NCBI GenBank assembly: GCA_964250805.1
Contig: CAXUHG010000004.1
Location: 25,730-89,729 of the forward strand
DNA: 64,000 nucleotides
Direction of reading: 5' to 3'
DNA from: an uncultured Ktedonobacteraceae bacterium
GTDB lineage: Bacteria; Chloroflexota; Ktedonobacteria; Ktedonobacterales; Ktedonobacteraceae
Shown: positions 1-63,180 of the stretch, one piece after another
How positions within the stretch are numbered: position 1 is the stretch's first letter
Layout: every line of letters starts with the position of its first letter
Translations under genes and position numbers: made by a program
Notes under the pieces: model-generated
Seen by the model: the letters and a program-made list of their open reading frames with translations, nothing else
What the model was told of the DNA's origin: nothing
The model's database searches: none

Positions 1-361
1 CAAGTCTTTTACACTCAATAATGAAATAACGCGCACTCCTTTTTGGATTGATTTCTGTATGATCGATAAAGCCCCAAGCAAAATCTGGAATTTTGTCTTC
101 TCGTTGTGTTCGTATTTCATCATCAGGACTGGGAGCATTCTTTGCTTCTGCTGTAGGAGGATATTCAAACCCTCCTCCTAATTCTCGTAGTTTCCTGTTC
201 GCTTCAAGTAAACAAAAAAATAATTCCCTATTTAAGAATACTTCGGACTTATCTAAGTTAGCATTCTTTTGAAGAATTAATAAAGCTTCTAAAAAGACCT
301 CTAAAACTCTTTGCTCATGCTTTTTCCAGATATTTAACCGCGATAATCGTGGTTGTTTCAT
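1..361 (-). CDS. PD-(D/E)xK nuclease-like protein; N-terminal 120 codons only, because the gene runs off the left edge
   Basis: My own translation from the ATG at 361-359: MKQPRLSRLNIWKKHEQ...EDKIPDFAWGFIDH...RYFIIECKRL. The PD ... ExK arrangement is typical of the restriction-endonuclease fold. The ATG overlaps the TGA of the upstream methylase (ATGA). The DNA is AT-rich like its neighbour. Confidence 0.5.
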   Translation of the reverse strand, partial: MKQPRLSRLNIWKKHEQRVLEVFLEALLILQKNANLDKSEVFLNRELFFCLLEANRKLRELGGGFEYPPTAEAKNAPSPDDEIRTQREDKIPDFAWGFIDHTEINPKRSARYFIIECKRL

Positions 362-3300: not shown

Positions 3301-3702
3301 AGGTTCAATTTTCTGCCAATCTTTGACATTCTTTGCAGGAGAACTATTCAAACTATAAACACGTAGTTCACCGGGAAGAGCCATAAAAAGGCATTGAGGA
3401 CGAGACATACACCATATTCGTCTAAATGTATCAAGTTGCTCTTCCAGGCTTGGCACATCCTGAAACTCATAAAAAACAACTACAGGGTCATTATTGACAA
3501 AAAATATTGACTTTACACCAACTTTTTCAGCAAGAACAAGCCAATCACCTTTTCCCAACCAATCATCATAATTAGTTGTAGAGTTGACACTTTTAGCAGC
3601 ACCTACTAAGGTACCATCCTGAAATCCAAGACTTCGGTAAGCCTCAGTTAAAAATGCATGAGCTGATTCAGGTTGTTCGTCTAACTGACTAACATTACTC
3701 AT
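358..3702 (-). CDS. Large gamma-class N6-adenine DNA methyltransferase (1114 aa; type IIG / PglX-like size and layout)
   Basis: ORF track. SAM motif I ILDPACGSGIFLV lies upstream of catalytic motif IV IVGNPPWGF. There are ~380-aa N-terminal and ~550-aa C-terminal extensions. Composition is AT-rich. Confidence 0.8.
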   Translation of the reverse strand: MSNVSQLDEQPESAHAFLTEAYRSLGFQDGTLVGAAKSVNSTTNYDDWLGKGDWLVLAEKVGVKSIFFVNNDPVVVFYEFQDVPSLEEQLDTFRRIWCMSRPQCLFMALPGELRVYSLNSSPAKNVKDWQKIEPLEVVRRAVDVATELRDYHREQIESGRLFADNRFGDIAERADRRLISDLKFVRQSLMKSGLNQEYTRHAHALIGRSIFIRYLEDRDILTPAYFEKVAENNPNWQKILSQKPEKPDLTLNLEKRRYDRVLHSKDFTYALFKKLAHDFNGDMFPQDEIEEVVVNQDHLDLIRGFLLGDVNLLQPSLFFWAYDFKIIPMELISSIYEEFYHGNNEDDKGTQYTPNVLVDFIVSQVLTEERLISNPRILDPACGSGIFLVESFRRIVRYKTQKQQKPLSSDELKQILRTQIVGIEINKEAAQVAAFSLYLALLNYLEPPDIMANKQLPNLIYKEDYPQEVNNYQILFNNNTFSLMDIEYEGLEGILTTSSRFKGRVQTKRLLESSTMLPLDTHSFDIIVGNPPWGFEEGTTREMREAQEQAQRWCEVFGWSIGDKELSQAFIARTLSLLKQGGVCGLLVSTGIFFKHQEKSQKFRHRWLEECTIKTVVNFVHVRHVFFNADAPFAFVQYEVGLPNPSHKIYYWSIKKTELIDKVQTIILSYSDLRQVKQNDIKYNETLWKVYWWGGHRDAALINTLNFNESLKQIAQTREWPTPGRGFQGFRQRAANYPSTWLKGYKELPIQFFHRYGLISDDVLKDVPEYVHRRGDRNIYSDWRLLVKRGITQAEGVDGQIEARLDYANYCFRNSIHGIRLVDTEEWERKVLIGILWSSLARYYFFMTASSWGTWHHEIHLEEVIKLPIKFTNNLELRKRIEVAVNKLQQWKPLSLNFESLTEQVEFVSLSSLEQELDEAIFDLYGLLDAERDLIRDMCKFGLDYFYNHIKSDAVKAVEYKCTSSLGVIDDLPMDRNLQNGLEAYIYTFLQVWNRELEDDGEFRWHIIYSNNAPMIAVVFTTQEKGYPLSNIPNVDEENEWQNVLKQCSEVLLRPVSKTIYTDSMVRAVTDTDILIVKRNEQRLWTRSAAREDAEATMLQAMYLPNEHVYEASK

Positions 3703-20875: not shown

Positions 20876-20890
20876 TGTGCCTCCTCGCAC

Positions 20891-22722: not shown

Positions 22723-22724
22723 AT

Positions 22725-25767: not shown

Positions 25768-25827
25768 TTTTCCTAAAGAGAGATTGGGAACGGCACTCGT
25801 GCCGTTCCCAATCTCTCTTTAGGAAAA
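25768..25827. terminator. Perfect 29-bp inverted repeat with a 2-nt spacer, 3' of sdhB
   Basis: TTTTCCTAAAGAGAGATTGGGAACGGCAC-tc-GTGCCGTTCCCAATCTCTCTTTAGGAAAA. It abuts the sdhB stop at 25828-25830. Confidence 0.6.
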
Positions 25828-28303: not shown

Positions 28304-28392
28304 AGGGCACCCGCAAGGGGATGCCCCTCCCATATGACATTACGTCATAGGCTTACTCGTGTATGGGAGGGGCATCCCCTTGCGGGTGCCCT
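28304..28392. repeat. Perfect 31-bp inverted repeat with a 27-nt spacer inside the sdh operon (sdhD/sdhA junction)
   Basis: AGGGCACCCGCAAGGGGATGCCCCTCCCATA ... TATGGGAGGGGCATCCCCTTGCGGGTGCCCT. Each arm also contains a local CCC-GCAA-GGG mini-hairpin. Confidence 0.7.
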
Positions 28393-30928: not shown

Positions 30929-31008
30929 CGCATTAGGAAAGAAAACATGAATGGAGATAGCAAGCGTGCTTGCTATCTCCATTCATGTTTTCTTTCCTAA
31001 TGCGTTAC
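30925..31008. terminator. Perfect 41-bp inverted repeat with a 2-nt spacer, the longest in the window
   Basis: GTAACGCATTAGGAAAGAAAACATGAATGGAGATAGCAAGC-gt-reverse complement. The left arm contains the TAA of the lipoprotein gene. The right arm encodes the last codons (V-T-H-stop) of gcvPB. Confidence 0.6.
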
Positions 31009-32484
31009 TTCTTGCCCCTCAATCCATCTCAAATTGGGTTTACGAGCGGCTAATGCTTGGTCAAGTCGCCCAACGACAGTGGTGTGTGGTGCTGTGCGGA
31101 CGATTTCGGGGTTTGTACGCGTCTCCTCGGCGATCTGGTGCATGACGCTGACGAAGTTATCGAGCGTTTCGCGTGTCTCCGTCTCGGTTGGCTCGATCAT
31201 TAGAGCCTCGTGGACGATCAACGGGAAGTACACCGTTGGCGCATACATGCCGAAGTCGAGTAAGCGTTTGGCGATGTCGAGGGCGGTCACGTTGTGTTCG
31301 TCCTTCTGTCGCTGTGCCGTCACCACAAATTCATGCTGACATGTCTGAGGATAGGCCACATCGTAGTCTGCCGCTAACTCATGTTTAAGATAGTTGGCGT
31401 TGAGAATGGCACTCTCGGAGACATGCTTGAGACCGTCGGGACCATTGCTACGCATGTAGGTGTAGGCACGTACCAGAACACCAAAGTTGCCCAGGTTAGC
31501 ACGCACCTTACCAATGGATTGTGGACCCATATCTTGCCAGAAGTACGTTCCATCCTCATTTTTTGCGGGCATTGGTCCTGGCAAGAATGGTACGAGATGA
31601 GCATTTACACCAATCGGACCCGCACCAGGACCACCACCACCATGTGGCGTACTACACGTCTTGTGCAGGTTGAAATGTACAACGTCGAAGCCCATGTCGC
31701 CCGGACGCGTGATGCCAAGTACAGCATTAGCGTTCGCACCATCGTAGTACAACTGTCCTCCAACCTCGTGTACCATTTGCGCGATCTCGGCGATGTTGGC
31801 ATCGAACAGGCCGAGCGTGTTAGGATTGGTCATCATAATCGCGGCTATATTCGCACCATTTGACTCTAGCAACATCTTTAGATGCTCCATGTCGATGCCG
31901 CCCGTTTGCGCGTCGCTCTTGACCTCAACTGCCTTATAGTCGGCAAGGGTTGCGCTCGCGGGATTGGTACCATGCGCGTTATCGGGAATTAAGACAAGGT
32001 TACGGTGCCCCTCACCCTTACTTTGATGATGAGCTTTGATGAGCATAAGACCTGTCAATTCGCCATGCGCTCCTGCCGATGGTTGCAGCGTTACACGCGT
32101 CATACCCGATATTTCCGCCAGATATTGCTCTAACTCGTACATGAGTTGAATTGCACCCTGCACTGTGCTTTCAGGTTGCAAGGGATGAATATGCGCGAAA
32201 CCAGGGAGAGCTGCCATATCCTCATTCAACTTGGGATTGTACTTCATCGTGCAGGAGCCAAGCGGGTAGAAGCCTGTATCAACGCTGAAATTGCGCTGTG
32301 ACAGGTGCGTATAATGGCGCACCACCTCGATTTCGCTTACCTCTGGCAACGGCGCGGGTGTCTCACGTAACAGACTAGAGGGAATCATTTCGTCTAGCGA
32401 CTCTGTAGGGACATCCATTGCTGGTAGTGTCGCGGCACGGCGTCCCGTTGCCCCTTTTTCAAAAATCAAGCTCTCTACGCTCAT
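30997..32484 (-). CDS. gcvPB: Glycine dehydrogenase (aminomethyl-transferring) subunit 2
   Basis: 495 aa with the PLP region ...[17 protein letters not shown]... . Its start overlaps the gcvPA stop (ATGA). Confidence 0.92.
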
Positions 32485-33866
32485 ACGTGTACCCTCTCAA
32501 CTTCCTTAGGTGTAGACACAGCAACCTCTTGTAGCACAGCGACCAGCGCGTCGATATCTTCTCTTGTGCGCGTCTCTGTGACACAGAACAACATATAGTT
32601 CTCCATATTGTCATAATCTGCACTCAACGAATAACCGCCGATGATACCAGCTTGCTCGAAATGTTGTTGTAGTTGGATTGCGCTAACAGGTAGCTTCACC
32701 ACAAATTCGTCATAAAATGGACTCGTGAAGGCGGCTTCAAATCCTGGTAGAGCGGTAATCTGGCGGAATGCGTAGTGTGCTTTTTGCAGACATAGCTCGC
32801 CTAACTCGCGGAAGCCCTGCTTGCCGAGGGCAGCCATATAGATGGTCGCGCCCACAGCCAACAACGATTGATTGGTGCAGATATTCGAGGTAGCGCGTTC
32901 GCGGCGAATGTGTTGCTCGCGCGTCTGCAACGTTAGCACATAGCCCGTCTGTTTCTTCTCGCCCTCTTCGACGGTCTGCCCCACGAGTCGCCCAGGCAAT
33001 AAGCGCATAAATTTCTGTTTTGCCGCCATAAAGCCGAGGGCAGGGGCACCATAGCTCATCGTATTGCCAAAGCTCATTAGTTCGCCAACGGCGATATCGG
33101 CACCATATTCGCCTGGTGCCGCAAGAATGCCAAGCGAAGCAGGTTCAGTGATGGTTGTCACGAACAATGCCTTGCCTTTGTGCGCGATACGTTCGATAGC
33201 GCGAACATCCTCAACACAACCAAAGAAGTTCGGTTGCTGCACAATCACGGCGGCAGTCGTTGCACTTACAGCCGCATCGAGAGCAGCGATTGGTGTCACG
33301 CCGTTTTGTGTCGGCACCTCTTTAATCTGGAAACCACGCGCGAAGGCATACGTATGTAGTACACGGCGGTACTGCGGATCAACGCCCTCCGAAATCACAA
33401 CCTCGCCGCGTCCACCAGGACCAAGTGCCATCAAGACCGCCTCGACTAGTGCCGTCGAGCCATCATAGAGCGAGGCATTGGCGATGTCGAGACCAGTGAT
33501 TTGACACACCATCGTCTGAAATTCGTAGATCGCTTGCAACATGCCCTGACTGACCTCCGCTTGATAGGGAGTGTAGGAGGTTACAAACTCTGAGCGACGT
33601 TGCAGGTGTGGCACCACGCTCGGAATAGCATGATCGTAGGTACCTGCGCCAAGAAACGAGATAGTTGTATCAATATCTTTATTTTTCGCCGCCATTCGTG
33701 TGAGCAAGCGTTTAAGGTCAGGTTCCGCCATTGCCTGTGGTAGATCGAGTGGACGCTCCAGCCGCACATGCTCTGGCACCGTCGTCAGCAGGTCTTCCAT
33801 GCTAGAGAGGCCGAGCCGCTCTAGCATAGCCTGCTGCTCTTCGGACGTATTCGGTACATAATGCAT
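32481..33866 (-). CDS. gcvPA: Glycine dehydrogenase (aminomethyl-transferring) subunit 1
   Basis: [19 protein letters not shown]..., ...[12 protein letters not shown]... . The start is at the ATG at 33866 (SD GGGGAG 8 nt upstream) rather than the track start at 33941. Confidence 0.9.
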
Positions 33867-34095
33867 AAAAAATGCTCCCCTTCGAGAATCGTTGTCTAGC
33901 CAAGCCCCTATTTCGTCAGATAACGTTTTACGAATGAACAAGGGGAGTCGCTACGACAATATAAAGACACATAGTTCTGGCAGCTATGTACAGGAGAACT
34001 ATGTTACTTATCTTGAATGTAGACATTTTCATTATATCCCATCGGAAGGGCAAACATCCAAGAATGCATGGTGTATTGGGAATGGACAAACTCTG

Positions 34096-34166
34096 GTAGG
34101 GACCGATTTATCACGTCCTTGTTCGGGAATTGATTGCTCACAAGGACGTGATAAATTGGTCTCTAC
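34096..34166. repeat. REPIN-like element, short form (family 1 variant)
   Basis: GTAGGGACCGATTTATCACGTCCTTG-19 nt-CAAGGACGTGATAAATTGGTCTCTAC, with two mismatches between the arms. Confidence 0.8.
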
Positions 34167-34247: not shown

Positions 34248-34982
34248 ATGACACATCTTTACCTTATTCGTCATGGAGAGGCAACCACGCAGATGGGGAA
34301 GTCACTACATGATTACGGCTTAACCCCCATTGGCGTGCGACAGGCGGAGAGACTGCGCAACCGTTTAGCGGCAACAGGCGAAATCGCGCCGGACGTATTT
34401 ATCGCCAGTACGCTACCACGAGCGCGTCAGACGGCACAGATTATCGCACCCGCATTTCGAGAGATGCCAATTATCTTCGACGACGAGGTACAAGAACTAC
34501 ATCCAGGCGAAGCAGAGAATATGACAGTAGATGAGTTCCGTAAGAAATTTGGCGGCTACAATCTGGACCAAAATCCCTTTCATCCCGTTTCGCCCGGAGG
34601 CGAAACGTGGGGTCAGTTCATTTTACGTGCAGGCTCGGCACTGCATCGTATCATTACCGAGCACGATGGCAAAAACATTGTCGTAGTGTGTCATGGCGGT
34701 ATAATCGACGCCTCGTTTATCTACTTCCTCAACATGGATACATTGCGTCTACCTGAAGTACGTTTTGACACGCGCAACGCCTCCATCACCTATTGGAGCA
34801 AGACAGCACCCTTTGAGAACAGGAAACCACGCTGGCGACTCGTGCGCTACAACGACGATATGCATGTGCGTGGCCTCGAAGAAAACTTCGATATTCCGTG
34901 GCAAGAGATGCCTCTACCACCCTATCAGAAATGGTTCGAGGCAGGACGACCACAATCCTCACAATCTCCCGCCGAGAAATAA
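34248..34982 (+). CDS. Histidine phosphatase (phosphoglycerate-mutase-like) family protein
   Basis: The RHGE motif in MTHLYLIRHGEAT and a later ...VVCHGGII... segment. Confidence 0.8.
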   Translation: MTHLYLIRHGEATTQMGKSLHDYGLTPIGVRQAERLRNRLAATGEIAPDVFIASTLPRARQTAQIIAPAFREMPIIFDDEVQELHPGEAENMTVDEFRKKFGGYNLDQNPFHPVSPGGETWGQFILRAGSALHRIITEHDGKNIVVVCHGGIIDASFIYFLNMDTLRLPEVRFDTRNASITYWSKTAPFENRKPRWRLVRYNDDMHVRGLEENFDIPWQEMPLPPYQKWFEAGRPQSSQSPAEK

Positions 34983-34985
34983 ATA

Positions 34986-35030
34986 AGAGGTGCAATAAAA
35001 TTGGGCGATGCCCAGTTTTATTGCACCTCT
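34986..35030. terminator. 20-bp inverted repeat (one G.T pair) with a 5-nt loop
   Basis: AGAGGTGCAATAAAATTGGG-cgatg-CCCAGTTTTATTGCACCTCT. The right arm contains the stop of the WD40 gene (35018-35020). Confidence 0.55.
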
Positions 35031-35892: not shown

Positions 35893-36378
35893 TTAGTGTT
35901 CTCGTGGTCCCTCGGTTAGCAGATTGACAGCATGAGGCAATACAGGCAGGATGTATTCGAGGCATTCTTTGACAGCTTTTGGACTACCGGGGAGATTGAT
36001 AATCAGAGTACGCCTACGTACACCAGCGACGCCACGTGATAACATTGCCATCGGCGTGTATTGTAAGCTGATTGAGCGCATCGCCTCCGCAATACCAGGA
36101 GCCTCGCGCTCGATAACCATAAGCGTCGCCTCTGGTGTGACATCGCGCGGTGCGAGTCCTGTACCGCCTGTGGTTAGGATAAGATTGAGGTGTTGCACGT
36201 CGCTCCATTCGCGCAAGACTGCCGTGATTGCGTCTGTCTCGTCAGGTACCACTGTTGCCGCACCTATAGTTGCTTCGGGAAGTTGTAGCGCGAGTGTACG
36301 GATATTTTCGCCGCTGGTATCTTGCCGCTCGCCTCTGGCTGCTCCATCGCTGATTGTCAGAATGCCAACCGTAATCAT
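35893..36378 (-). CDS. mogA: Molybdenum cofactor biosynthesis protein MogA/MoaB family (molybdopterin adenylyltransferase)
   Basis: 161 aa: ILTISDGAARGERQDTSG ..., LILTTGGTGLAPRDVTPEAT ..., INLPGSPKA. Confidence 0.85.
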   Translation of the reverse strand: MITVGILTISDGAARGERQDTSGENIRTLALQLPEATIGAATVVPDETDAITAVLREWSDVQHLNLILTTGGTGLAPRDVTPEATLMVIEREAPGIAEAMRSISLQYTPMAMLSRGVAGVRRRTLIINLPGSPKAVKECLEYILPVLPHAVNLLTEGPREH

Positions 36379-36408
36379 ATATTCCTCAGCCTTGATCCGA
36401 TATCTTTT

Positions 36409-36542
36409 CGTAGGGACCAGATTTATCGCGTCCGTTGCTCAATTTATTGAGCGAAATCTTTGTGAACCCTCTCCCCAAGCCGTGTTAAACGTGATCTCGC
36501 GTGATAAATCACGCAACGGACGCGATAAATCTGGTCCCTACG
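36409..36542. repeat. REPIN-like element, long form (family 1 archetype)
   Basis: 26-bp perfect terminal inverted repeats CGTAGGGACCAGATTTATCGCGTCCG / CGGACGCGATAAATCTGGTCCCTACG. They flank an 82-bp interior with sub-palindromes GCTCAATTTATTGAGC and GCGTGATAAATCACGC. Confidence 0.9.
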
Positions 36543-36564
36543 AATTGAGATAGATAGAAGCATA

Positions 36565-37206
36565 TTATGCGGGTGGAGTGAGTTCGCGCATAAGTGCCCC
36601 GATCTGACGCCGTGAACCAAACACCCAGACTGTATATTCATCGGGCAAGTCCTCAACCTCGACGCCACAGTTCATCTCGGACGCAAGCTTGCGCACGATA
36701 TCAAGAAATTGTCCGCGCTCTGGCACACTACGACTTTGCGTACTCAGCGCGAGTCGTCCGAGTCGTTCGTCGGGACTCAGAACCGCGTTTATGACCGCAT
36801 TAAGTTGCTCCATGCCAAAAATGACCTGCAATGGCGGCAAATCCTTTGCCTGTACCACCACCGAAGCCTTTTTTCCACCCACACCCTCGCTATATTCCTC
36901 CTGCTCTTGCGTCAGGTCTACATAGACCGAACGCAACTGTTCGAGAACCAGCATACGCGCCTCTTCAGGTGCATCCGAGCGCGGGTGTACATAGGCCAGC
37001 AAATTATGCTCTGGATCAGAATAGATAAATGGATTTGAGGTCGCGGCACGGCGCCCACAATTGGGACAGGTAGCGACGTTGAGCATACCGGACAGAATGG
37101 TATAGCGCAATTGTGGGTCTTGCGCGGTATTGACATATTCGTAAGTGACTGCTGGAAAAGTTGTCCCACAGGGACAGGTAAATGTATGTGTATGTGAACG
37201 TGACAT
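36565..37206 (-). CDS. CpXC-domain protein
   Basis: An N-terminal CPCG ... CPNCG pair (FTCPCGTTF...VATCPNCGRRA), matching my recollection of the CpXC family; 213 aa. Confidence 0.55.
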   Translation of the reverse strand: MSRSHTHTFTCPCGTTFPAVTYEYVNTAQDPQLRYTILSGMLNVATCPNCGRRAATSNPFIYSDPEHNLLAYVHPRSDAPEEARMLVLEQLRSVYVDLTQEQEEYSEGVGGKKASVVVQAKDLPPLQVIFGMEQLNAVINAVLSPDERLGRLALSTQSRSVPERGQFLDIVRKLASEMNCGVEVEDLPDEYTVWVFGSRRQIGALMRELTPPA

Positions 37207-42404: not shown

Positions 42405-42419
42405 TTATTGTCACAGAAA

Positions 42420-42860
42420 TCACTCGTCATATAGACCCAACTCTTCACTCAAACGGGTAAGCTCATCAAGTTTTCGATCTTGCTCAGCCTCGTAACGCTT
42501 TTTATATTCCATAAGCGTGCCAAAACGAATACGTCTATGTGTCCCTACTACGTTAAAGGGGATTTTCCCCTCTTCAAGCAACTTGACGAAGTATGGTCGT
42601 GACACATTCAGTATATCCGCTGCTTCTTGAGTCGTCAATTCTTTGTTGATTGGCACGACACTAATAGCACGTCCACGCATCATGTGATAGATGATTTGGC
42701 GCAACACTTGAAAAACAGAGAGCGGTAACTCTATCTCTTCTCCGTCTGGTCCAATCAAGCGAGGACGACGCTTCTCTTGCTTCAACGCATCTTCGATTTT
42801 CTTGAGTGCAGGGCGCTCACTTTCACTAGCCGTGATTGGCTCTCGTTCTATTACCGACAT
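42420..42860 (-). CDS. Excisionase-family (MerR-like HTH_17) DNA-binding antitoxin
   Basis: ...LTTQEAADILNVSRPYFVKLLEEGKIPFNVVGTHRRIRF... ; 146 aa, located upstream of the PIN gene. Confidence 0.7.
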   Translation of the reverse strand: MSVIEREPITASESERPALKKIEDALKQEKRRPRLIGPDGEEIELPLSVFQVLRQIIYHMMRGRAISVVPINKELTTQEAADILNVSRPYFVKLLEEGKIPFNVVGTHRRIRFGTLMEYKKRYEAEQDRKLDELTRLSEELGLYDE

Positions 42861-43107: not shown

Positions 43108-43240
43108 CGTAGGGGCCACATTTATGGCGTCCACCGCTCAATTCATTGAGCGAAATCCTTGTGAACTCCTTCTACAAGACGTATCAGGCATAATCTCGCG
43201 CGATAAATCGCACACGGACGCGATAAATCTGGTCCCTACG
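43108..43240. repeat. REPIN-like element, long form, with a degenerate left arm
   Basis: The left arm is CGTAGGGGCCACATTTATGGCGTCCA (6 changes) and the right arm is perfect: CGGACGCGATAAATCTGGTCCCTACG. The interior is collinear with the 36409 copy. Confidence 0.85.
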
Positions 43241-43284: not shown

Positions 43285-45429
43285 ATGGCTAAGGAGCCGG
43301 AAGCGAAAAGTCGTATTTGGAGAGAAAAACTGGTAGGGGTATTGCCTACCGTCGGTCAATTTGGAATACTCGTCGCTGTTGCAATTGCAATTCTTCGACT
43401 TACTCCCTTTACATCAGACATGTTGACGGCTTTCTGGACGGGCAGCGATCTACCACGGAGCCACTGGCCCACGGCGCTCTTAATTCAGCGTACCTTTGCG
43501 CAGGATTCCCGGTTGCCGCTCTGGAATCCCTATTATGCAGGAGGGCAACCACTCGCTGCTGACCCACTCGCTGCTCTCTTCTACCCACCAACACATCTGG
43601 TTCACTTTTTCTCGTTGCGCGACTACTATGTTATATTGATTACGAGCCATCTAGTATTTGCAGGGCTAGGTATGTTGCTGCTGGCACGTCGTGCATTGAG
43701 TTTGCCGCGTCTCCCTGCTCTGGTAGCGGCGATTGCGTTCATGGCAACACCCCGTTTGATTGGTCATCTTGGTGCTGGACATATTACGATTGTGCAAACA
43801 GTCGCGTGGTTTCCGTGGCTCGCTCTTGCATGTTGGGCAACGATACGAGAGCCGAGCCGCTGGGGTGTGGCACTTGGGATTTGCTTCGCAATGACGTTGC
43901 TGGCTGGACATCCACAGATTGCATACTATGGACTTTTGATGACTGCAGGATTGGCAGCATGGCTTCTCATACGACGTTGGTGGACGAGCGGATGGCGGTC
44001 AATGCTCAAATCTATCGCAGGTTTAGTGAGTGCTAGCGTAGTTGGTGTCCTGGTCGCTGCAGTCTTCCTGCTACCATTAGCCGAGTTTACAGCCTATTCG
44101 ACGCGCCAGACAGAGGTAAAGTCGCGTGACAGCTATCCGCTATTGGACTTTCTCAAACGGCTCTTTATTCAACCAGCACCGCAAGGTGTTCCTTGGGAAG
44201 TCATGCTCACACCTGGACTGGCGGTACTTGCTCTCGTTGCGATTGCATTCGTACTACGCTGGTACAAGACGTGGCCTCTACTGCTTGGTATCGTCCTTGT
44301 CGCTGGACTAGCAATGGGTGACTCTTCGTCACTCTACATTGTTGCCACACATATATTGCCCAGCTTCGACCGTTTTCGTAGCCCTGCCCGTATCTGGTTC
44401 GTGGCACTTGTCCCCATAGCTCTGCTTGCAGGGCTTGGCACCGATGCACTACGACAAATAGTACAGCGGAGATTTCAACGCGGCTCATTGACGTTTGGTC
44501 TGCTCGCCGTTCTTGTCGTCGCAGGTACGCTCATACCGATGGATTGGAGCTATACAAAAACAGGCAGTGTAACCGATGTAACCACGCCTTCTCAACTAGC
44601 ACGTACAGCATCGCAGTTAGCGGATAGTGGACGAATTTACGACGTGCAGGATGATAATATCTCTCAGGCAACTGCTGTGCTACTACAAACACGCCTTGCC
44701 AGTGGTTGGAATCCGCTTATGATTCAGTCCTACGTTGAGTATATTCATAGTGCTGGAGATTATGATATTGCTGGCTACCAGTTACATATTCCGAGCGCTG
44801 ATGGTCCTCAAGTTCAACCCAAGGCAAAGCTACTCGGCTGGATGAACGTGAGCGTTGTGATTTCGCGGCGACCGATGACCGACCCGCATCTTGCATTTAT
44901 GGAGAAAGTAGATAACGTATACATCTATAAGAACACACTCGACGCTGGTTCCGCGTATCTCGTTAGTCCCGCCTCGAATGGCTCGGTTCCTTCGCTCGAC
45001 GCTATGCAAAAACTTAACATTCCCGTACATACCGTAACGCAGACGCCAGAGCAAGAGACATACACCTTCACGAGCAACACACAGGCGTATCTCGTACTCG
45101 CCGAACCCACATTCCCTGGCTGGATTGCTAGATTGGATGGCAATATTGTATCGCCCCAAATCGTTGCGAAAGTGTTGCCAGCAATCAAAGTCGGCCCCGG
45201 TACTCACACATTGAGTTACAGTTACGCGCCATCATCTGTCCGTATCGGTGCTGTACTTTCAGGAATTGGTCTGCTTGCACTGCTCGCATGGCTCGTGGTC
45301 ATAGCGTTTTGGAAGCCACGTAGACGCCAGACAATCACGGAGGAAGATGGAGAGGAAGGTGTTGAGGAACCCGTAGGGGCTATTATTCATAACGCCCTCG
45401 TACCCATTAACCATGTATACAGAGATTGA
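43285..45429 (+). CDS. Large polytopic membrane protein, YfhO/GT-C-like putative glycosyltransferase
   Basis: 714 aa with more than 10 TM helices. The segment ...LPLWNPYYAGGQPLAADPLAALFYPP... resembles YfhO-type proteins. It ends in a C-terminal beta-rich domain and a final TM helix. Confidence 0.45.
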   Translation: MAKEPEAKSRIWREKLVGVLPTVGQFGILVAVAIAILRLTPFTSDMLTAFWTGSDLPRSHWPTALLIQRTFAQDSRLPLWNPYYAGGQPLAADPLAALFYPPTHLVHFFSLRDYYVILITSHLVFAGLGMLLLARRALSLPRLPALVAAIAFMATPRLIGHLGAGHITIVQTVAWFPWLALACWATIREPSRWGVALGICFAMTLLAGHPQIAYYGLLMTAGLAAWLLIRRWWTSGWRSMLKSIAGLVSASVVGVLVAAVFLLPLAEFTAYSTRQTEVKSRDSYPLLDFLKRLFIQPAPQGVPWEVMLTPGLAVLALVAIAFVLRWYKTWPLLLGIVLVAGLAMGDSSSLYIVATHILPSFDRFRSPARIWFVALVPIALLAGLGTDALRQIVQRRFQRGSLTFGLLAVLVVAGTLIPMDWSYTKTGSVTDVTTPSQLARTASQLADSGRIYDVQDDNISQATAVLLQTRLASGWNPLMIQSYVEYIHSAGDYDIAGYQLHIPSADGPQVQPKAKLLGWMNVSVVISRRPMTDPHLAFMEKVDNVYIYKNTLDAGSAYLVSPASNGSVPSLDAMQKLNIPVHTVTQTPEQETYTFTSNTQAYLVLAEPTFPGWIARLDGNIVSPQIVAKVLPAIKVGPGTHTLSYSYAPSSVRIGAVLSGIGLLALLAWLVVIAFWKPRRRQTITEEDGEEGVEEPVGAIIHNALVPINHVYRD

Positions 45430-45525
45430 GAGCGGCAACAATAAAGACAAAACGTTGTAAATGAGGAAAAGGGCGTAATAAATTATAGCCCCTACAGGTT
45501 CCTTATCAATTATGTAAGCAATATA

Positions 45526-46128
45526 TTACGCGAAAAACTGCTGTACCTGCACGGGAAAATTCGGTACGACTCGTGATGGTAGAGTTTGTTCACCGCTAAA
45601 AACCCCAGATGAGCGATATACTCCGTCCTCTAAGAGCAGCACTTCTATTGTATGCGCCTTTGGCTCGGCAATCCAATACTCTTGTACGCCTGCTTGAGAA
45701 TAGGCTACGTATTTTCGATGCCTGTCATGAATGGCTGTGCTGGGAGAAGAAATCTCTATAGCGAGGTCAGGGGCACCAATCACACGCGCTTCTGTGATTT
45801 TTCCCAGGTTATCGTTAAGAAGCACAAACACGTCAGGTTGGACGACAACGTTATATGCCACTTCAACATCTCTCGGTCCCATATACACATGCCCTAAGCC
45901 AGCCAAGCGTACATGTACAGTCAGGTAATAGAAAAACCAGCCAGTAGCATCCTGATGGGGGCCTGTAGGTGCAGGAGCCATGTTGTAAAGCACTCCATTT
46001 ACAATTTCATATCTCTTCCCATCATCAGGAAGTGCTGCATAATCGTCATAGGTCCAATGACCTTGCTTTGGGCCTATAACCCAATCAGCAGGAGTGACTA
46101 TATCATCTTGGCTGTGTGTTGTTGCCAT
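45526..46128 (-). CDS. Uma2-family (DUF820) PD-(D/E)xK endonuclease-like protein
   Basis: ...YEIVNGVLYNMAPAPTGPHQ..., ...VQPDVFV..., ...APDLAIEISSPST... . The start is at the ATG at 46128. Confidence 0.75.
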   Translation of the reverse strand: MATTHSQDDIVTPADWVIGPKQGHWTYDDYAALPDDGKRYEIVNGVLYNMAPAPTGPHQDATGWFFYYLTVHVRLAGLGHVYMGPRDVEVAYNVVVQPDVFVLLNDNLGKITEARVIGAPDLAIEISSPSTAIHDRHRKYVAYSQAGVQEYWIAEPKAHTIEVLLLEDGVYRSSGVFSGEQTLPSRVVPNFPVQVQQFFA

Positions 46129-46367
46129 TATAGCAATCCTGCCTTTCGTGTAGTTCTCTATCAGAAGGGATAGTGGTTTTCTGCACATAGTATATCATGC
46201 TCTGGAATGAGAAAACACTTATGCATTGTTATATATAATGAAGGGGAGCCAATCAGGAATGGCTGGTCGCTTTAGTACACAATTGGCTCTGGTAGCGTCC
46301 TCTATTTACGTGCTAAGCTTTACATCAACAAGCATAACAATTTTTTGTATACGTACCCATATACATT

Positions 46368-46499
46368 CGTAGGGACCAGATTTATCGCGTCCGTTACGTG
46401 ATTTATCACATGAGATCATTTTGATACATCCTATATATACATAGTAAGGATTTCGCGCAATGAATTGCGCCTACGGACGCGATAAATCTGGTCCCTACG
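46368..46499. repeat. REPIN-like element, long form, with its interior inverted relative to the other copies
   Basis: It has the same perfect 26-bp termini. The interior modules (CGTGATTTATCACA ... GCGCAATGAATTGCGC) appear in reverse-complement order. Confidence 0.9.
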
Positions 46500-47516: not shown

Positions 47517-48152
47517 ATGTCCAACCCAACACTACGTATCGGCGTATTAGCATTACAGGGTGATTTCGAGGCGCACATTCAAGCACTGAAAATGGCGGCC
47601 TCGATGTTGGGTATCGAAGTGATTGGAATTCCTGTTCGATTACCTAAACATCTTGACGAAATTGATGGTATAATATTACCAGGTGGTGAGAGTACAACCA
47701 TCGGCAAATTGATGGTTGAATATGGCTTAGATGGTATACTAAAACAAAAGATTCAAGATGGCGTTCCCTTCTGGGGAACATGTGCGGGCTTAATTTTATT
47801 AGCGAAAGAGACGGATAACGCGCTTGCTGGTCAGCCATTACTGGCTTCACTCGACATTCGCGTTCGCCGCAATGCATTTGGTAGTCAGCGAGAGAGTTTT
47901 GAGACAGACCTTTCGGTGCCTGCATTAGGAGAAGCTCCATTCCATGCCTTCTTCATCCGAGGGCCAGCCGTAGAAACGGTGGGACCAGAGGTGGAAGTGC
48001 TGGCGAAGCTCGACGACGGAACCATCGTCGCCGTCCGTGAAGGAACTCTGCTAGGGACCGCGTTTCACCCGGAGGTTGCGATAGCCGAAGGCCAGAGAGA
48101 CCCACGTTTTCATCATTACTTTCTCCGTATAGTACAGAGCGTCGCCTCGTAG
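47517..48152 (+). CDS. pdxT: Pyridoxal 5'-phosphate synthase glutaminase subunit
   Basis: ...IGVLALQGDFEAH..., the GTCAG nucleophile region, ...FHPE... ; 211 aa. Confidence 0.9.
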   Translation: MSNPTLRIGVLALQGDFEAHIQALKMAASMLGIEVIGIPVRLPKHLDEIDGIILPGGESTTIGKLMVEYGLDGILKQKIQDGVPFWGTCAGLILLAKETDNALAGQPLLASLDIRVRRNAFGSQRESFETDLSVPALGEAPFHAFFIRGPAVETVGPEVEVLAKLDDGTIVAVREGTLLGTAFHPEVAIAEGQRDPRFHHYFLRIVQSVAS

Positions 48153-48247
48153 GGGTCTGATTTATCACACCCAATACATCGTACTCATGATGTAAGGTCT
48201 GATTGATTCTACCCACGATGCCTGTAGGGGTCTGATTTATCACACCC
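48148..48247 (+). repeat. Family-2 GTAG repeats: two good direct copies plus one degenerate copy
   Basis: CGTAGGGGTCTGATTTATCACACCC at 48148-48172 overlaps the pdxT TAG stop. TGTAAGGTCTGATTGATTCTACCC at 48191-48214 is the degenerate copy. TGTAGGGGTCTGATTTATCACACCC lies at 48223-48247. Confidence 0.8.
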
Positions 48248-56844: not shown

Positions 56845-57249
56845 ATGAGTAGTGAGGCCAGGCAGACACAGCCCAGCCATAGACAACATGAGGCACCAGC
56901 TAGCCCACGTCGCGGAGAGATCTGGGACGTGAACTGGTCCCCTGGTCGAGGTGCAGAGCAACAAGGCACTCGACCCGCTTTAATTATCCAGAATGATCGA
57001 GGGAACGCTTCACCTGCGTATCCCCTGACCATCGTCGCCTCTATGAGCCGTACCGAGCGCGAACTTCCCCTGCATGTGCGCATTGCTCCTACTGAGGAGA
57101 ACGGCTTGACCGACCGCACCGATGTCAAGTGTGAACAGGTCATGACTATTGAAAAGTCGCGTCTGCTACGTCGGCGTGGCTCCATCACTTCCGATGAACT
57201 CGCCAAAGTTGATACTGCCCTCAAACTCAGCCTCGATCTCCTCTCGTAG
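56845..57249 (+). CDS. mazF: PemK/MazF-family endoribonuclease toxin
   Basis: ...PRRGEIWDVNWSPGRGAEQQGTRPALIIQND..., ...EQVMTIEKSRL... Confidence 0.85.
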   Translation: MSSEARQTQPSHRQHEAPASPRRGEIWDVNWSPGRGAEQQGTRPALIIQNDRGNASPAYPLTIVASMSRTERELPLHVRIAPTEENGLTDRTDVKCEQVMTIEKSRLLRRRGSITSDELAKVDTALKLSLDLLS

Positions 57250-57275: not shown

Positions 57276-57410
57276 CGTAGGGACCAGATTTATCGCGTCC
57301 GCTGTTCAATTTATTGAGCGAGATCGTGATGAACCCTGTCTATAAGCTGTATCAAACACGATCTCGCGTGATAAATCACGCTCTCGGACGCGATAAATCT
57401 GGTCCCTACG
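57276..57410. repeat. REPIN-like element, long form
   Basis: Perfect 26-bp termini. The interior carries an 11-bp nested stem GCGAGATCGTG/CACGATCTCGC plus the TCAATTTATTGA and CGTGATAAATCACG sub-palindromes. Confidence 0.9.
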
Positions 57411-57429: not shown

Positions 57430-57453
57430 GTAGGAGTCTGATTTATCACACCC
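57430..57453 (+). repeat. Solo family-2 GTAG repeat
   Basis: GTAGGAGTCTGATTTATCACACCC, lying 20 nt downstream of the family-1 element. Confidence 0.7.
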
Positions 57454-57600
57454 TCCGTTCCCCCACGTATGTAGCGAACTAACCATTTGGTAAGTACATT
57501 TTTTGCTCCATGTATAATGAAACATAGATAGGATTTTACATATTTGTGGTAGAGATGGCAGGTGCTATCTCTATAGAAGGTAGTGGGGAGGGGTTTCCTC

Positions 57601-58404
57601 ATGGAGGAAAAACAAGAAACATGGTCTACCAGCATAAGCGTTGCTGAACAACCATATCCACGTGTTAGTGTCGTCATACCCGCACGCAATGAAGCCAAAA
57701 ATCTGAGTCATGTCCTACCATATATTCCATCAATCGTTCATGAGGTCGTGCTTGTAGATGGACAATCGGCTGACGATACAATAGAAGTTGCGCGACAACT
57801 ACTTCCAAATATTCGTGTTGTACATCAAACAGGCAAGGGCAAGGGCGATGCTTTACGAGCGGGGTTTGCAGCCTGTACGGGCGATATCGTTGTGATGCTC
57901 GATGCCGATGGGTCCGCGGACCCTACAGAGATACCGCGCTTCGTCGAGGCTCTCGTAGCGGGCAACGACTTCGCAAAGGGTTCACGCTTCATTCGTGGTG
58001 GTGGCAGCACAGATATTACGCTGCTGCGTCAGGCTGGTAACTATCTGCTCGGCATGCTGGTCAACGTATTATTCGCAACACGCTTCAGTGACCTCTGCTA
58101 CGGCTATAACGCCTTCTGGAAACGCTGTCTCGACGAAATCAACATCGACTGCGATGGCTTCGAGATAGAAACGTTGCTGAACCTGCGGATGCATAAAGCG
58201 AATTTCAAAATCGTCGAGGTGCCCAGTTTCGAGTACTCGCGCGTGTATGGTGAGAGCAACCTACGCACCTTCCGCGATGGCTGGCGTGTCCTTAAAACAA
58301 TTCTCAAAGAGCGTCGCGCATCGCTTCCTACGATACCGCCCCTTATAGAAAGCGATGAAGCTGTTCTGGTTTACACGAGTGTGAAGAAGAGGACGGTACG
58401 CTAA
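57601..58404 (+). CDS. Family 2 glycosyltransferase (dolichyl/polyprenyl-phosphate sugar synthase-like)
   Basis: VSVVIPARNEAKNL, VVMLDADGS, the ...GSRF... pattern. ATG at 57601 is preferred over the track start at 57583. Confidence 0.8.
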   Translation: MEEKQETWSTSISVAEQPYPRVSVVIPARNEAKNLSHVLPYIPSIVHEVVLVDGQSADDTIEVARQLLPNIRVVHQTGKGKGDALRAGFAACTGDIVVMLDADGSADPTEIPRFVEALVAGNDFAKGSRFIRGGGSTDITLLRQAGNYLLGMLVNVLFATRFSDLCYGYNAFWKRCLDEINIDCDGFEIETLLNLRMHKANFKIVEVPSFEYSRVYGESNLRTFRDGWRVLKTILKERRASLPTIPPLIESDEAVLVYTSVKKRTVR

Positions 58405-60353: not shown

Positions 60354-61829
60354 GTGAATTCTCTTTTTCAGTGGCTAAAAACCAATAGCGTGATGCTCGT
60401 CAACGCTGGTTCATTGATTGGCACAACGGCGATAACATCGGGACTGGGATTTGTGTATTGGTGGATTGCAGCACGGCATTTTTCAACCGAGACAATAGGA
60501 ATCGCCTCTGCCTCTCTGTCGGCAATGATGCTACTGGGCAGTTTTTGCGTATTGGGACTGGGAACTCTGCTCATCACCGAGCTGCCACGACAACCAGGAC
60601 GGGAGGCATCGTTAATCAGTACAGCCCTGCTTGTAGTAGGAGGCATAGGTACTCTCATTGGCATTGCCTTCGCACTCACTAGTCCCTCCTTCATTGGAGG
60701 CTTCGGACCACTTCGTGCGAACGGCATGAACGTACTCATCTTTGGGTTAGGCGTCAGCCTTAATGGAGTTACGCTTGTACTGGACCAAGCTTTGATTGGC
60801 ATACTACGTGGGAGTCTACAACTGTGGCGCAACACGCTGTTCGCGCTGATCAAGTTGGTCACGCTCTTTTTTGTTGGTACGTGGCTATCGAGCAATCTTG
60901 GTGTCGCAATCTATGCAACGTGGGCTATTTCTAACATTCTTTCGATAGTAGTGCTAGTCATCCCGATTGTATTCAAAAAAGGTGCAACAATTCAGCAGTA
61001 TCTTCCACAATGGGGATTACTACGCAAACTAGGTGCGGCTGCAATTCAGCATCACCTGCTCAATCTCACACTTCAATTTCCGACGCAGGTGTTGCCAATC
61101 GTCGTTACCGCCTTACTCTCGGCCCAGATGAACGCTTGGTTCTATGTCTCGTGGATGCTGGTCAGCTTCGTATTTATCATTCCTGGGGCGTTAACCACCG
61201 TGCTACATGCGATGAACTCTGCGCAACCATCATCACTTGCGCATAAAGCGCGCGTCACGATAGGATTAGCGGTCCTCACAGGCGTTCTCACCAATATTGT
61301 CCTACAGTTTGGAGCTAAACAGGTGCTGAGTCTCTTCGGTGCCTCATACGCCGCCAATGCCGCATGGTGTCTACGCATACTCGCCCTCGCCGCCTTTCCG
61401 CTGATTATAAAAAATCACTATATCTCTATATGCCGTATTCAGGACCGCGTAGGGAGCGCAATTCTCAGCATCCTCCCCGGCGGTATTCTCGAAGTGCTTG
61501 CCGCCATATTAGGTGCTTACCTCGGTGGTCTATCGGGATTAAGTTTCGGCTGGGTGGCGGCTATTGCCGTCGAAGCGATATTCATGTTCCGCACAGTCTA
61601 CAGGGCAGTGTGGTCAAAAGAAACACTATCGGTGCAGGACGAATCCAGTTCACAGGAGATACAGGCTATCTGGCTAGTTGAGACGGTCTCGATGCCCAGT
61701 ATCGCACAAAGCTACCCTGGCGTAAGGATATTGCAACACGTCGAAAGCACCTCATCGTCGGGCATAAGCGCACTACATCCGCCCGACCCAATTCGGCTCA
61801 AACCACCGCGTCTAAAGAAGTACGCATGA
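60354..61829 (+). CDS. Polysaccharide/oligosaccharide flippase (Wzx/MOP-superfamily-like) membrane protein
   Basis: 491 aa with about 12-14 TM helices. It lies inside the GT cluster. Confidence 0.65.
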   Translation: MNSLFQWLKTNSVMLVNAGSLIGTTAITSGLGFVYWWIAARHFSTETIGIASASLSAMMLLGSFCVLGLGTLLITELPRQPGREASLISTALLVVGGIGTLIGIAFALTSPSFIGGFGPLRANGMNVLIFGLGVSLNGVTLVLDQALIGILRGSLQLWRNTLFALIKLVTLFFVGTWLSSNLGVAIYATWAISNILSIVVLVIPIVFKKGATIQQYLPQWGLLRKLGAAAIQHHLLNLTLQFPTQVLPIVVTALLSAQMNAWFYVSWMLVSFVFIIPGALTTVLHAMNSAQPSSLAHKARVTIGLAVLTGVLTNIVLQFGAKQVLSLFGASYAANAAWCLRILALAAFPLIIKNHYISICRIQDRVGSAILSILPGGILEVLAAILGAYLGGLSGLSFGWVAAIAVEAIFMFRTVYRAVWSKETLSVQDESSSQEIQAIWLVETVSMPSIAQSYPGVRILQHVESTSSSGISALHPPDPIRLKPPRLKKYA

Positions 61830-61831: not shown

Positions 61832-61901
61832 GTAGGGACCGATTTATCGCGTCCTGCTGGCGTCTCGATTGCCGACGAGGACGTGATAAATCGGTCCCTA
61901 C
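61832..61901. repeat. REPIN-like element, short form
   Basis: GTAGGGACCGATTTATCGCGTCC-24 nt-GGACGTGATAAATCGGTCCCTAC. It starts 3 nt after the flippase stop. Confidence 0.85.
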
Positions 61902-62013: not shown

Positions 62014-63180
62014 GTGATGGGAAACACAATACAGCCGCTGCGTGTACTCATGGTAACAGCACGCTATTTTCCATTTATGGGCGGCATCGAAACGCACGTC
62101 TACGAGGTCGGACGACGACTGGTACAACGTGGCGTCGATGTTACCATCGTCACCACAAGACCACGAGCAACTGCGACTCGCTCGGGGCTGCCAAGCGAAG
62201 AAATCATAGAAGGCATGCGTATTCTACGCGTCTCCTACTGGCCCGCAGAACATGACTACTATATCGCACCGGAAATACACACGCTTATCACGCGCGGCAA
62301 CTGGGACGTTGTGCATTGTCAGGGTAGTCATACTTTTGTGCCACCAATGGCAATGCTCGCCGCCAAACAAGCGGGTATTCCATATGTCGTCACCTTTCAC
62401 ACAGGCGGCAACTCCTCGCGCTTACGAACCGCCATCCGCGACATACAATGGACGCTTCAGCGCCCGCTTTATAGGGGTGCCGCAAAACTCATTGGCGTCT
62501 CACACTTCGAGGCCAACTACTTCCGTAGTCTGTTACGTCTCTCGCGTAAACGCTTCGTCGTCATACCAAATGGCGGAGCGACCTTTCCTGCGGTAACGCT
62601 CTCGCACTCGGATTCCAAGGACACACTCATCATTTCCCCTGGTCGCCTGGAACGCTACAAAGGACATCATAATCTCATCACCGCGCTGCCAGCAATTCGT
62701 GAGCAACGTCCAGATGCACGCCTGCTCATTCTCGGCACGGGTCCCTACGAGGACGCACTACGCAAATTGGCGCGGCGGACAAGCGTTAGCGATTATGTAG
62801 ATATTCGGTCGGTTCCTGCTACCGACCGTCGCGGCATGGCGGAGACTCTTTCGAGCGCAACAGTTGTGGCTCTATTAAGCGAGTATGAAGCACATCCAGT
62901 AGCTGTGATGGAGGCTCTCACGTTACGGCGTCCCGTTGTCGTCGCCGCTACGTCTGGCCTTCATGAAATCGCCCAGCAAGGTCTGGCGCGTGAAATTCCA
63001 TTGAAGAGTACGCCACGTGAGGTGGCAAACGCCATTCTGCACCAGATCGAGGAGCCACTTACTCTCCCATCTCATTTCACATTACCAACGTGGGACGAGT
63101 GTGCGGAACAGGTTGAAGCTGTCTATAGAGCATGCGTAAAAAGCTTGGAGAGGGAAAGGGAGGACGTATGCGTATCTTAA
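62014..63180 (+). CDS. Family 4 (GT-B, group 1) glycosyltransferase
   Basis: LRVLMVTARYFPFMGGIETHVYEVGRRL at the N-terminus and ...SEYEAHPVAVMEAL... (E-x7-E region) at the C-terminus. Confidence 0.8.
   Translation: MMGNTIQPLRVLMVTARYFPFMGGIETHVYEVGRRLVQRGVDVTIVTTRPRATATRSGLPSEEIIEGMRILRVSYWPAEHDYYIAPEIHTLITRGNWDVVHCQGSHTFVPPMAMLAAKQAGIPYVVTFHTGGNSSRLRTAIRDIQWTLQRPLYRGAAKLIGVSHFEANYFRSLLRLSRKRFVVIPNGGATFPAVTLSHSDSKDTLIISPGRLERYKGHHNLITALPAIREQRPDARLLILGTGPYEDALRKLARRTSVSDYVDIRSVPATDRRGMAETLSSATVVALLSEYEAHPVAVMEALTLRRPVVVAATSGLHEIAQQGLAREIPLKSTPREVANAILHQIEEPLTLPSHFTLPTWDECAEQVEAVYRACVKSLEREREDVCVS

Follow-up and report, generated by a model that had tools for sequence, protein, structure and literature searches.

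GTAG-tagged REP doublets in Ktedonobacteraceae DNA: a dispersed palindromic family very probably maintained by a RAYT transposase

Introduction

The locus studied here raises a simple question: what are the short palindromic elements that stand between its genes, and what has spread them? It is a stretch of 64,000 nucleotides from an uncultured Ktedonobacteraceae bacterium (assembly GCA_964250805.1, contig CAXUHG010000004.1, positions 25,730 to 89,729), referred to below, at its full length, as the window, and the element is represented by the copy at 36409-36542. A first-pass annotation made from the sequence alone had described four long and two short copies and had read them as REPIN-type elements, that is, as repetitive extragenic palindromes (REPs) in inverted doublets of the kind mobilised by REP-associated tyrosine transposases (RAYTs). 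Our follow-up leads to the same reading. It is highly likely that the elements are REPs in head-to-head doublets (REPINs), forming a non-autonomous family that occurs across Ktedonobacteria and owes its formation and maintenance to a RAYT (TnpA-REP), a Y1/HUH transposase. The evidence consists of the dispersal of the family, the GTAG-tagged hairpin that forms each arm, the lack of target-site duplication, the RAYT genes that such repeats flank in related genomes, and the turnover of elements at orthologous sites.

REP elements of the window

All six copies already described were found at their positions, but a doublet at 45373-45495 and singlets at 48149, 48224 and 57430 had been overlooked. 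The elements are listed below, with a strand where one is assigned.

34096..34166: short REP doublet (REPIN, head-to-head) with 23-nt arms GTAGGGACCGATTTATCACGTCC / GTAGAGACCAATTTATCACGTCC and a 25-nt spacer, between the divergent gcvP-like gene 32481..33941(-) and the His_Phos_1 gene 34248..34982(+)
36409..36542, plus strand: long compound doublet between the co-directional genes CpXC, 36565..37206(-), and moaB, 35893..36378(-); its layout is outer REP, inner hairpin GCTCAATTTATTGAGC, GAAATC, 34-nt centre, GATCTC, inner hairpin GCGTGATAAATCACGC, outer REP
43108..43240, plus strand: long compound doublet with the variant left arm GTAGGGGCCACATTTATGGCGTCC, between the divergent genes 42420..42860(-) and 43285..45429(+)
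45373..45495: inverted doublet of a sister REP variant, GTAGGGGCTATTATTCATAACGCCC ... GGGCGTAATAAATTATAGCCCCTAC, between convergent genes
46368..46499, minus strand: long compound doublet in the opposite orientation, between the divergent genes Uma2, 45526..46188(-), and pdxS (true start ~46544)
48149..48172, plus strand: variant-C REP singlet, GTAGGGGTCTGATTTATCACACCC
48224..48247, plus strand: second variant-C REP, a head-to-tail direct repeat of the 48149 singlet, 75 nt downstream
57276..57410, plus strand: long compound doublet whose inverted repeat reaches 30 nt (TTTTCGTAGGG...), downstream of the mazF-like gene 56845..57249(+) and upstream of the glycosyltransferase gene 57583..58404(+)
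57430..57453, plus strand: variant-C REP singlet, GTAGGAGTCTGATTTATCACACCC, 20 nt past the long element
61832..61901: short REP doublet, 2-3 nt after the TGA stop of 60354..61829(+) and upstream of 62014..63180(+)

The 26-mer CGTAGGGACCAGATTTATCGCGTCCG has seven exact matches on the two strands of the window (36409, 36517(-), 43215(-), 46368, 46474(-), 57276 and 57385(-)), against 0.00 in shuffled sequences, and the eighth long-form arm, at 43109-43132, differs from it by three mismatches. The 26-bp terminal inverted repeats with one degenerate arm that had been reported were therefore borne out. The four long copies (~133 bp) can be aligned end to end with a mean column identity of 86-88%, and this alignment explains the copy at 46368, which had been described as having identical termini and an inverted interior, as the same element in the opposite orientation. 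The interior palindromes noticed earlier (GCTCAATTTATTGAGC, GCGTGATAAATCACGC and the GAGATC/GATCTC pair) are all present, and the recurring octamer GATTTATC occurs 17 times in the window, each time within a REP element. Arms measure 23 nt in the short form (ACC-GATTT) and 24 nt in the long form (ACCAGATTT), and the variant-C singlets at 48149, 48224 and 57430 share the form GTAGG(G/A)GTCTGATTTATCACACCC. Altogether the window holds 17 GTAG-tagged units, all of them at 34-62 kb (28 kb) and none in 1-34 kb. The doublet at 45373 began as a lead from a generic scanner for GTAG plus hairpin, which is unspecific (2-14 hits in shuffles).

The first-pass annotation had called the placement of the copies strictly intergenic. 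The units are indeed strongly extragenic, but the left REP of the 45373 doublet encodes the last 19 codons of the YfhO-like open reading frame (ORF) 43285..45429, and the TAG within the GTAG of the 48149 REP is the stop codon of pdxT (47517..48152); REP elements can, in other words, donate stop codons or C-terminal tails to real genes. The eight loci of the window lie between divergent starts (34096, 43108 and 46368), between co-directional genes (36409, 48149, 57276 and 61832) or at convergent ends (45373). The peptide RDKSGPYE is the translation of GGACGCGATAAATCTGGTCCCTACGAA, and the ORFs that bear it, 35951..36553 and the 5' extension of pdxS starting at 46460, are mechanical, in agreement with the earlier view that they are artefacts. 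Annotators should mask such elements, which give rise to spurious ORFs and over-extended starts (as with the RDKSGPYE peptides and the pdxS start).

Hairpin structure and conservation

We found that the outer arm is itself an imperfect hairpin of ~20 nt preceded by its tag, composed of GTAG, GGAC, C(N), GAT, TT, ATC, GC and GTCC. GTAG stands directly before the GGAC... stem in 12 of 12 main-family arms of the window and is invariant or at least 90% conserved across 31 arm variants. In these variants the hairpin ....((((.((((..)))).)))) has 8 pairs and is 91% paired, and registers slid as a control reach at most 44%. The stem also covaries: 24 double-change cells were counted against 6.7 +/- 2.1 in shuffles (0 of 500 as good), both-sided changes occur at five pairs, and compensatory examples include the replacement of GAT/ATC by CAT/ATG, CGT/ACG or GGT/ACC. 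A mid-stem C/C (and A/G) mismatch is conserved in the arms.

Covariation among eight long forms favours four local hairpins over one long foldback. The four-hairpin model has six covarying pairs (0 of 500 shuffles), whereas the single-foldback model shows no excess covariation, 455-497 of 500 shuffles being as good. Changes in the outer arms, such as those in the left arm at 43109 and in the right arm of L094 (loci of related genomes are given L numbers), are compensated inside the same arm and not in the partner arm; in the 43108 copy a G-to-C and a C-to-G change compensate each other within the arm, where pair 11-18 is CG. What is conserved is the individual hairpin; the long foldback arises incidentally from the inverted placement of the arms.

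Folding as single-stranded DNA (ssDNA), a check that the first-pass annotation had suggested, gave stable structures at -30 to -48 kcal/mol for long forms and -26 to -30 kcal/mol for short forms (z -6 to -13), and the elements fold equally well on either strand. Individual values were -25.7 kcal/mol (z -11.1) for 34096..34166, -45.1 (z -12.5) for 36409..36542, -47.8 (z -12.7) for 57276..57410 and -29.7 (z -9.1) for 61832..61901. Identity is highest in the arms (97%), lower in the inner hairpins (86-89%) and lower still in the centre (58%) and the linkers (38-40%), and since this gradient is equal within the window and between genomes, the perfect termini reflect constraint on the hairpins rather than recent copying.

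The spacer of the long form contains two inner hairpins, GCNCAATKMATTGNGC and GCGTGATTTATCACGC, each followed by GAGATC towards the centre. These inner hairpins are without GTAG, and the ATTTAT tip is common to them and the outer REP. As a matter of speculation, they might be extra binding sites or relics of REP units.

Dispersal among Ktedonobacteria

We scanned one genome per prokaryotic species with the pattern GTAGGGACC(N)GATTTATCRCGTCC, which yielded at least 101 stretches. The matches listed are all from Ktedonobacteria, including the isolate Ktedonobacter sp. SOSP1-85, and fuzzy matching of the listed stretches gave at least 251 REP units in at least 27 assemblies. Restriction to the region of the window, which the first-pass annotation had said would indicate local duplication rather than a dispersed family, was thus not what we observed. 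Among the listed stretches the best flanking-gene identity to the window is 75-83%. Full-length long forms at 80-90% identity were found in L013, L038, L094 and L101, all from assembly CAXUGH01, which carries both long forms and the RAYT gene of L002 described below. The closest homologues of the CpXC protein of the window are all from Ktedonobacteraceae, the best being 99% identical. Of the units, 16% fall within mechanical ORFs of 150 aa or more, although such ORFs span 81% of the bases, and the ORFs in which window units were scored are artefactual.

The listed stretches contain 82 convergent (+,-) arm pairs, with size classes of 69-71 nt (36 pairs), 107-122 nt (22) and 130-138 nt (14). One set of outer arms goes with several spacer modules, namely a plain one of ~25 nt, a G+C-rich one, GCTGCACGAGCGAAGCA and the two-inner-hairpin type, and the build is therefore mosaic and modular, with at least three spacer modules combined with the same outer REPs. 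The lengths of the direct repeats flanking 81 elements were distributed as in a permuted control, giving no sign of target-site duplication. Directly before GTAG, short-form arms have T in 61 of 76 cases and, one base further out, C in 39 of 76; the flank before GTAG reads C-T in the short form and T-T-C in the long form.

An Rfam search of the window gave two tRNAs as the only hits to reach the gathering score and no match to the elements. A phage origin was set aside, a single match to the family having been found among 2.9 million viral contigs.

RAYT genes in related genomes

The first-pass annotation had seen no RAYT gene in the window, which our searches confirmed, and had proposed looking elsewhere for a Y1 gene flanked by these repeats. 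Such genes were found at five loci, in related genomes or metagenome contigs. Among the at least 101 listed stretches, two ORFs carry HUH and Y..NP motifs:

L002, 1076-1552, minus strand: Y1 ORF with a complete doublet on each side
L048, 6142-6714, plus strand: Y1 ORF between inverted single REPs

The sole family match of these ORFs is NCBIfam NF047646 (REP-associated tyrosine transposase), with E values of 7.5e-17 and 6.6e-14. We also identified homologues at 56-61% identity in L185, L189 and L190, each bracketed by REPs of the family with a stem variant of their own:

L185, REP stem variant flanking the RAYT: GATGTATC
L189, REP stem variant flanking the RAYT: AGCTTTAGC
L190, REP stem variant flanking the RAYT: CAATTGATTG

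The L190 RAYT has on either side a compound doublet with inner hairpins (CTGCAATTCATTGCAG), in the architecture of the long form. The earlier remark that the interior goes beyond classical REPINs was partly right in this light: the long-form interior is elaborate, but structured stem-loop spacers were already known (PMC3733652) and the same architecture flanks a RAYT.

Residues H81, H83 and Y149 are invariant in 44 RAYT homologues, and 438 relatives are found in databases at E <= 1e-20, several of them named RayT by their source (JGI). An AlphaFold model of the L002 protein (pLDDT 85, pTM 0.80) gave 30 Foldseek matches in the PDB at E <= 1e-3, all 30 of which are Y1/HUH transposases, including 4er8, the E. 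coli TnpA-REP bound to a REP hairpin (E 4.9e-07). A metagenome scan added 569 relatives. In the best 80 of these, GTAG(G/A)G-hairpins are about 20 times denser in or beside the gene than in the distal flanks; in 64 of the 80 (L102-L181) the Y1 gene itself contains a GTAG(G/A)G-hairpin-C(C/T)CTAC palindrome, at codons ~80-100, just after the HUH motif, and in 43 of the 80 a GTAG-hairpin is also present within 300 nt of the gene. Judging from these sequences, an in-gene GTAG palindrome looks like the rule for a large RAYT clade. The Ktedonobacteraceae RAYT genes (L002, L048, L185, L189 and L190) are without it.

TnpA-REP binds the folded REP on one strand only, with GTAG being essential, and cleaves at a CT 5' or 3' of the REP; in E. 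coli the stem mismatch is required (PMC8266576). If the present family behaves like the systems of E. coli, Stenotrophomonas and Marinomonas, its RAYT would bind the folded arm hairpin on ssDNA, read the 5' GTAG as a guide, cut beside GTAG at the adjacent C-T (short form) or T-C (long form), and mobilise or copy the doublet without target-site duplication. Effects on the host would be secondary, a candidate being a stable transcript hairpin where an element sits between co-directional genes.

Turnover at orthologous sites

In the window, the CpXC-moaB spacer is 186 nt long, including the 134-nt element. Among relatives the same spacer is filled, empty or differently occupied, which establishes the presence/absence polymorphism that the first-pass annotation had suggested looking for:

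L182, CpXC 91% identical to that of the window: CpXC-moaB spacer of 22 nt, without the element
L183, CpXC 85% identical: CpXC-moaB spacer of 4 nt, without the element
L184, CpXC 95% identical: CpXC-moaB spacer of 142 nt, with a different REP-bearing insert
L192, CpXC 99% identical and flanking genes 93% identical in DNA: spacer with a 120-nt doublet having 23-nt arms

The spacer of the L192 doublet is unrelated to that of the window element, and the moaB-side arm with its flank is all that the two have in common. The nearest relatives are short contigs (L192, 2.3 kb; L184, 4.2 kb). The short doublet at 34096 is kept at the orthologous site of L184 (3114-3185), and L008 has a different gene content beside the 34096 site. 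In the part of L183 that aligns with the 61832 region, this doublet seems to be absent, as judged by the lengths of the alignment spans (3636 nt of the window against 3587 nt of L183) and not by a base-by-base junction; the one match to this doublet in L183 lies outside the aligned block. At the locus of L024 orthologous to 57276 (2944-3044) a run of N falls exactly at the site of the element and is hence uninformative. Orthologous sites therefore differ by presence or absence and by replacement, with no direction of gain or loss implied, and the CpXC-moaB spacer shows that one site can be re-occupied or rewritten.

The gene order shared with L182 and L183 is also interrupted beside REP elements, at 34166/34174 and near 57578. 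The glycosyltransferase cluster beginning at window position 57578 comes immediately after the moaB block in L183, and in L182 the block ending at 34174 adjoins genes of window 22795-24824. These breaks may reflect rearrangement at REP sites, or REPs accumulating in variable spacers.

Alternative explanations

Several points weigh against the view that the elements are REPINs maintained by a RAYT. No data here show transposition directly. The window contains no RAYT or Y1 gene, either by tblastn with two RAYTs or by a check of ORF motifs, and we infer the presence of a cognate RAYT in the window organism from its relatives, the RAYT loci examined being five (L002, L048, L185, L189 and L190). 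The two candidates from the listed stretches score 61.6 and 52 bits, below the NCBIfam NF047646 cut-off of 80, and as this is their sole family match they are divergent relatives of that family rather than equivalogs. The Pfam Y1_Tnp cut-off is barely reached, 23.4 against 23, by one of the two, and sequence likeness to E. coli TnpA-REP is marginal (4er8 in a PDB search, E 0.58). In addition, covariation was measured on few sequences (31 and 8), which are related to one another, so it is supporting evidence for local hairpins and not proof. Finally, the window copies resemble one another no more closely than copies from different species do, with centres ~58% identical, a pattern of hairpin constraint rather than of recent bursts of copying.

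The 26-30-bp terminal inverted repeats, long and near-perfect, together with a size of 70-135 bp, many copies and both orientations, would suit a classical miniature inverted-repeat transposable element (MITE), that is, an internally deleted insertion sequence (IS) moved in trans by a DDE transposase that binds double-stranded DNA ends. However, target-site duplication does not exceed chance in the 81 elements, GTAG tags the ends, every arm forms a hairpin of its own in which changes are compensated within the arm and not between partner arms, and the only recurrent gene bracketed by the repeats encodes a Y1/HUH and not a DDE transposase. We therefore consider a MITE origin highly improbable. 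Local duplication, or an assembly artefact limited to this region, has next to no probability: it would account for the confinement of all window units to 28 kb (34-62 kb) with none in the first 34 kb, but the dispersal scan refutes it, the family being present in at least 27 other assemblies including the isolate Ktedonobacter sp. SOSP1-85, and the flanks of the copies are unrelated and their interiors differ by 12-40%.

Selection by the host could also have shaped the elements as structural or regulatory devices spread without a transposase, whether as RNA terminators, attenuators, mRNA stabilisers or operators for a GATAAATC-binding protein. The very stable folds (-26 to -48 kcal/mol, z -9 to -13), the strong conservation of hairpin modules against diverged centres and linkers, and the position of several copies between co-directional genes or directly past stop codons are in keeping with this, and E. 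coli REPs have such secondary roles (PMC3733652, PMC8266576). An intrinsic terminator was nevertheless rejected on location and orientation, since three of the eight loci are flanked by divergent gene starts, a position that makes no sense for a terminator, and both orientations occur with equal folding on either strand. Against host-selected elements in general stand the lack of an Rfam match, the gain, loss or swapping of elements at orthologous sites whose flanking genes are 91-99% identical in protein, and the apparent use here of a different 3'-end device, the long unique palindromes described below. The linkage to RAYT would also be left unexplained, and overall this explanation is improbable.

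A bolder version of the REPIN-RAYT reading holds that the long form is a distinct functional REPIN grade, a four-hairpin element selected hairpin by hairpin within a long-lived, vertical REPIN-RAYT partnership, with the swap at the CpXC-moaB site being a RAYT-driven exchange. We regard this as rather unlikely. If it were true, the inner GTAG-less hairpins would serve the RAYT as additional docking sites or would regulate it, the partnership would exist in Ktedonobacteria, where none has been studied, and the same-site swap of doublets between 93%-identical genomes would be a RAYT-driven exchange in situ.

Gene content and other repeats

Genes of the window include a Rad50/NurA pair, pdxS, pdxT, moaB, a gcvP-like gene, a CpXC protein gene, PIN and MazF toxin genes and several glycosyltransferase genes. 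Small genes of the defence or addiction type adjoin REP loci (41820-42860, 56504-57249 and 45526-46188), namely those for a PIN-domain protein and its DNA-binding partner of the excisionase family, for a MazF/PemK toxin with a 108-aa ORF ahead of it, and for a Uma2-family endonuclease. Within the REP-free 1-34 kb, the part from 1 to 4 kb has a low G+C content (36-37%) and contains a 1114-aa ORF, 358..3702(-), and there are two tRNA genes, at 5741-5814 and 5844-5923 (-). Part of this region of the window may be recently acquired DNA.

The window also contains 14 long palindromes of unique sequence, each nearly perfect (at most one mismatch; arms 20-41 nt, loops 0-6 nt), at the following positions:

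7306-7359, 7905-7950, 9628-9700, 13511-13566, 19398-19475, 20890-20939, 22724-22795
24823-24891, 25768-25827, 30925-31008, 34985-35031, 51252-51329, 54443-54506, 60250-60324

These palindromes have no GTAG and are not related to REPs. Thirteen of the 14 abut or overlap a stop codon, and several stand between convergent genes; elsewhere, in 759 kb of other Ktedonobacteria loci, they number ~4.6 per 64 kb. When the palindrome at 34985 was compared with its orthologues in L184 and L182, the sequences differed, with most changes mirrored in the other arm and each palindrome near-perfect. They may be unusually long bidirectional terminator hairpins whose symmetry is kept by concerted or compensatory change, and we found no literature on long 3'-end palindromes of this kind.

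A further G+C-rich inverted repeat at 28304-28392 (AGGGCACCCGCAAGGGGATGCCCCTCCCATA / TATGGGAGGGGCATCCCCTTGCGGGTGCCCT; 31-nt arms, 27 nt apart) has an 86%-identical counterpart in L091 and probably represents another small family of repeats. One contig, L058 (CAXUHF010000193.1), is a perfect foldback over its whole 7584 nt, an assembly artefact in that metagenome-assembled genome.

Comparison with known systems

The resemblance to the IS200/IS605 group lies in the Y1/HUH fold (the best PDB matches of the L002 model are ISDra2 and IS608 TnpA), in subterminal hairpins recognised on ssDNA and in the lack of target duplication. Unlike those elements, the present family has symmetrical GTAG-hairpin ends in place of distinct left and right ends, its repeats vastly outnumber the gene, and no tnpB was noticed beside the Y1 gene in the five loci read, with no protein search for tnpB having been made.

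A close counterpart is the E. coli system of REPs, or bacterial interspersed mosaic elements (BIMEs), with its RAYT (TnpA-REP, the 'REPtron', PDB 4ER8), reportedly worked out by Ton-Hoang in 2012, Messing in 2012 and Corneloup in 2021. Both families have a 5' GTAG followed by an imperfect palindrome with a conserved two-base stem mismatch (CA/GC here, AA/GC in E. coli), inverted doublets, a Y1/HUH gene bracketed by its own REPs and no target-site duplication, and the C-T before GTAG in the short form matches the known CT cleavage site. The present family differs in phylum and sequence and has shorter arms (23-24 nt); its RAYT is ~17% identical in a structural alignment and lies below the NCBIfam equivalog cut-off, and the spacer of its long form contains, in addition, GAGATC boxes and two hairpins without GTAG.

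REPINs of Pseudomonas fluorescens and other Proteobacteria, which are said to have been treated by Bertels and Rainey in 2011 and with RAREFAN, share with the present family a unit of two inverted REPs plus spacer with conserved ends and a variable middle. They are likewise extragenic, occur in several size and sequence classes per genome, and include RAYTs flanked by REPs of the same family, with a REP variant of its own for each RAYT. Unlike them, the family described here shows covariation that favours four local hairpins over a long foldback, and the copies in the window are old, with centres ~58% identical.

Di Nocera, De Gregorio and Rocco (2013) catalogued families of GTAG REPs, among them GTAG-23 of Thermomicrobium roseum (Chloroflexi), and already described head-to-head dimers whose spacers measure 20-100 bp and have stem-loops at their ends, as well as the structured spacers of Agrobacterium CGTC-3 dimers (PMC3733652). 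The REPIN-RAYT arrangement is also found in Quentin et al. 2018 (PMC6006769). Our family agrees with the GTAG families in its head-to-head dimers (GTAG outside), spacers of 20-100 bp, complementary ends or stem-loops at the spacer ends, several families per genome and occasional overlap with ORF ends. It differs in coming from Ktedonobacteria, which that set did not cover, and in its two-stem-loop spacer, known from a CGTC family without a transposase link and found here in a GTAG family that flanks a RAYT (L190). In the literature searched we found no account of repetitive extragenic palindromes in Ktedonobacter or of intergenic palindromes in Ktedonobacteria.

In conclusion, the family is a new Ktedonobacteria lineage of the known GTAG REP super-family, of the REPIN-RAYT kind, and its compound spacer is a modest variation on known REP dimers. 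REPIN-RAYT systems have been worked out almost wholly in Proteobacteria, and with this family they are extended to Ktedonobacteria (Chloroflexota), whose genomes are large and rich in repeats. It also offers a clean natural data set, in which many stem variants change together with their own RAYT, spacers are modular and close relatives show site-specific turnover, and which could be used for studying how a Y1 enzyme reads a hairpin.

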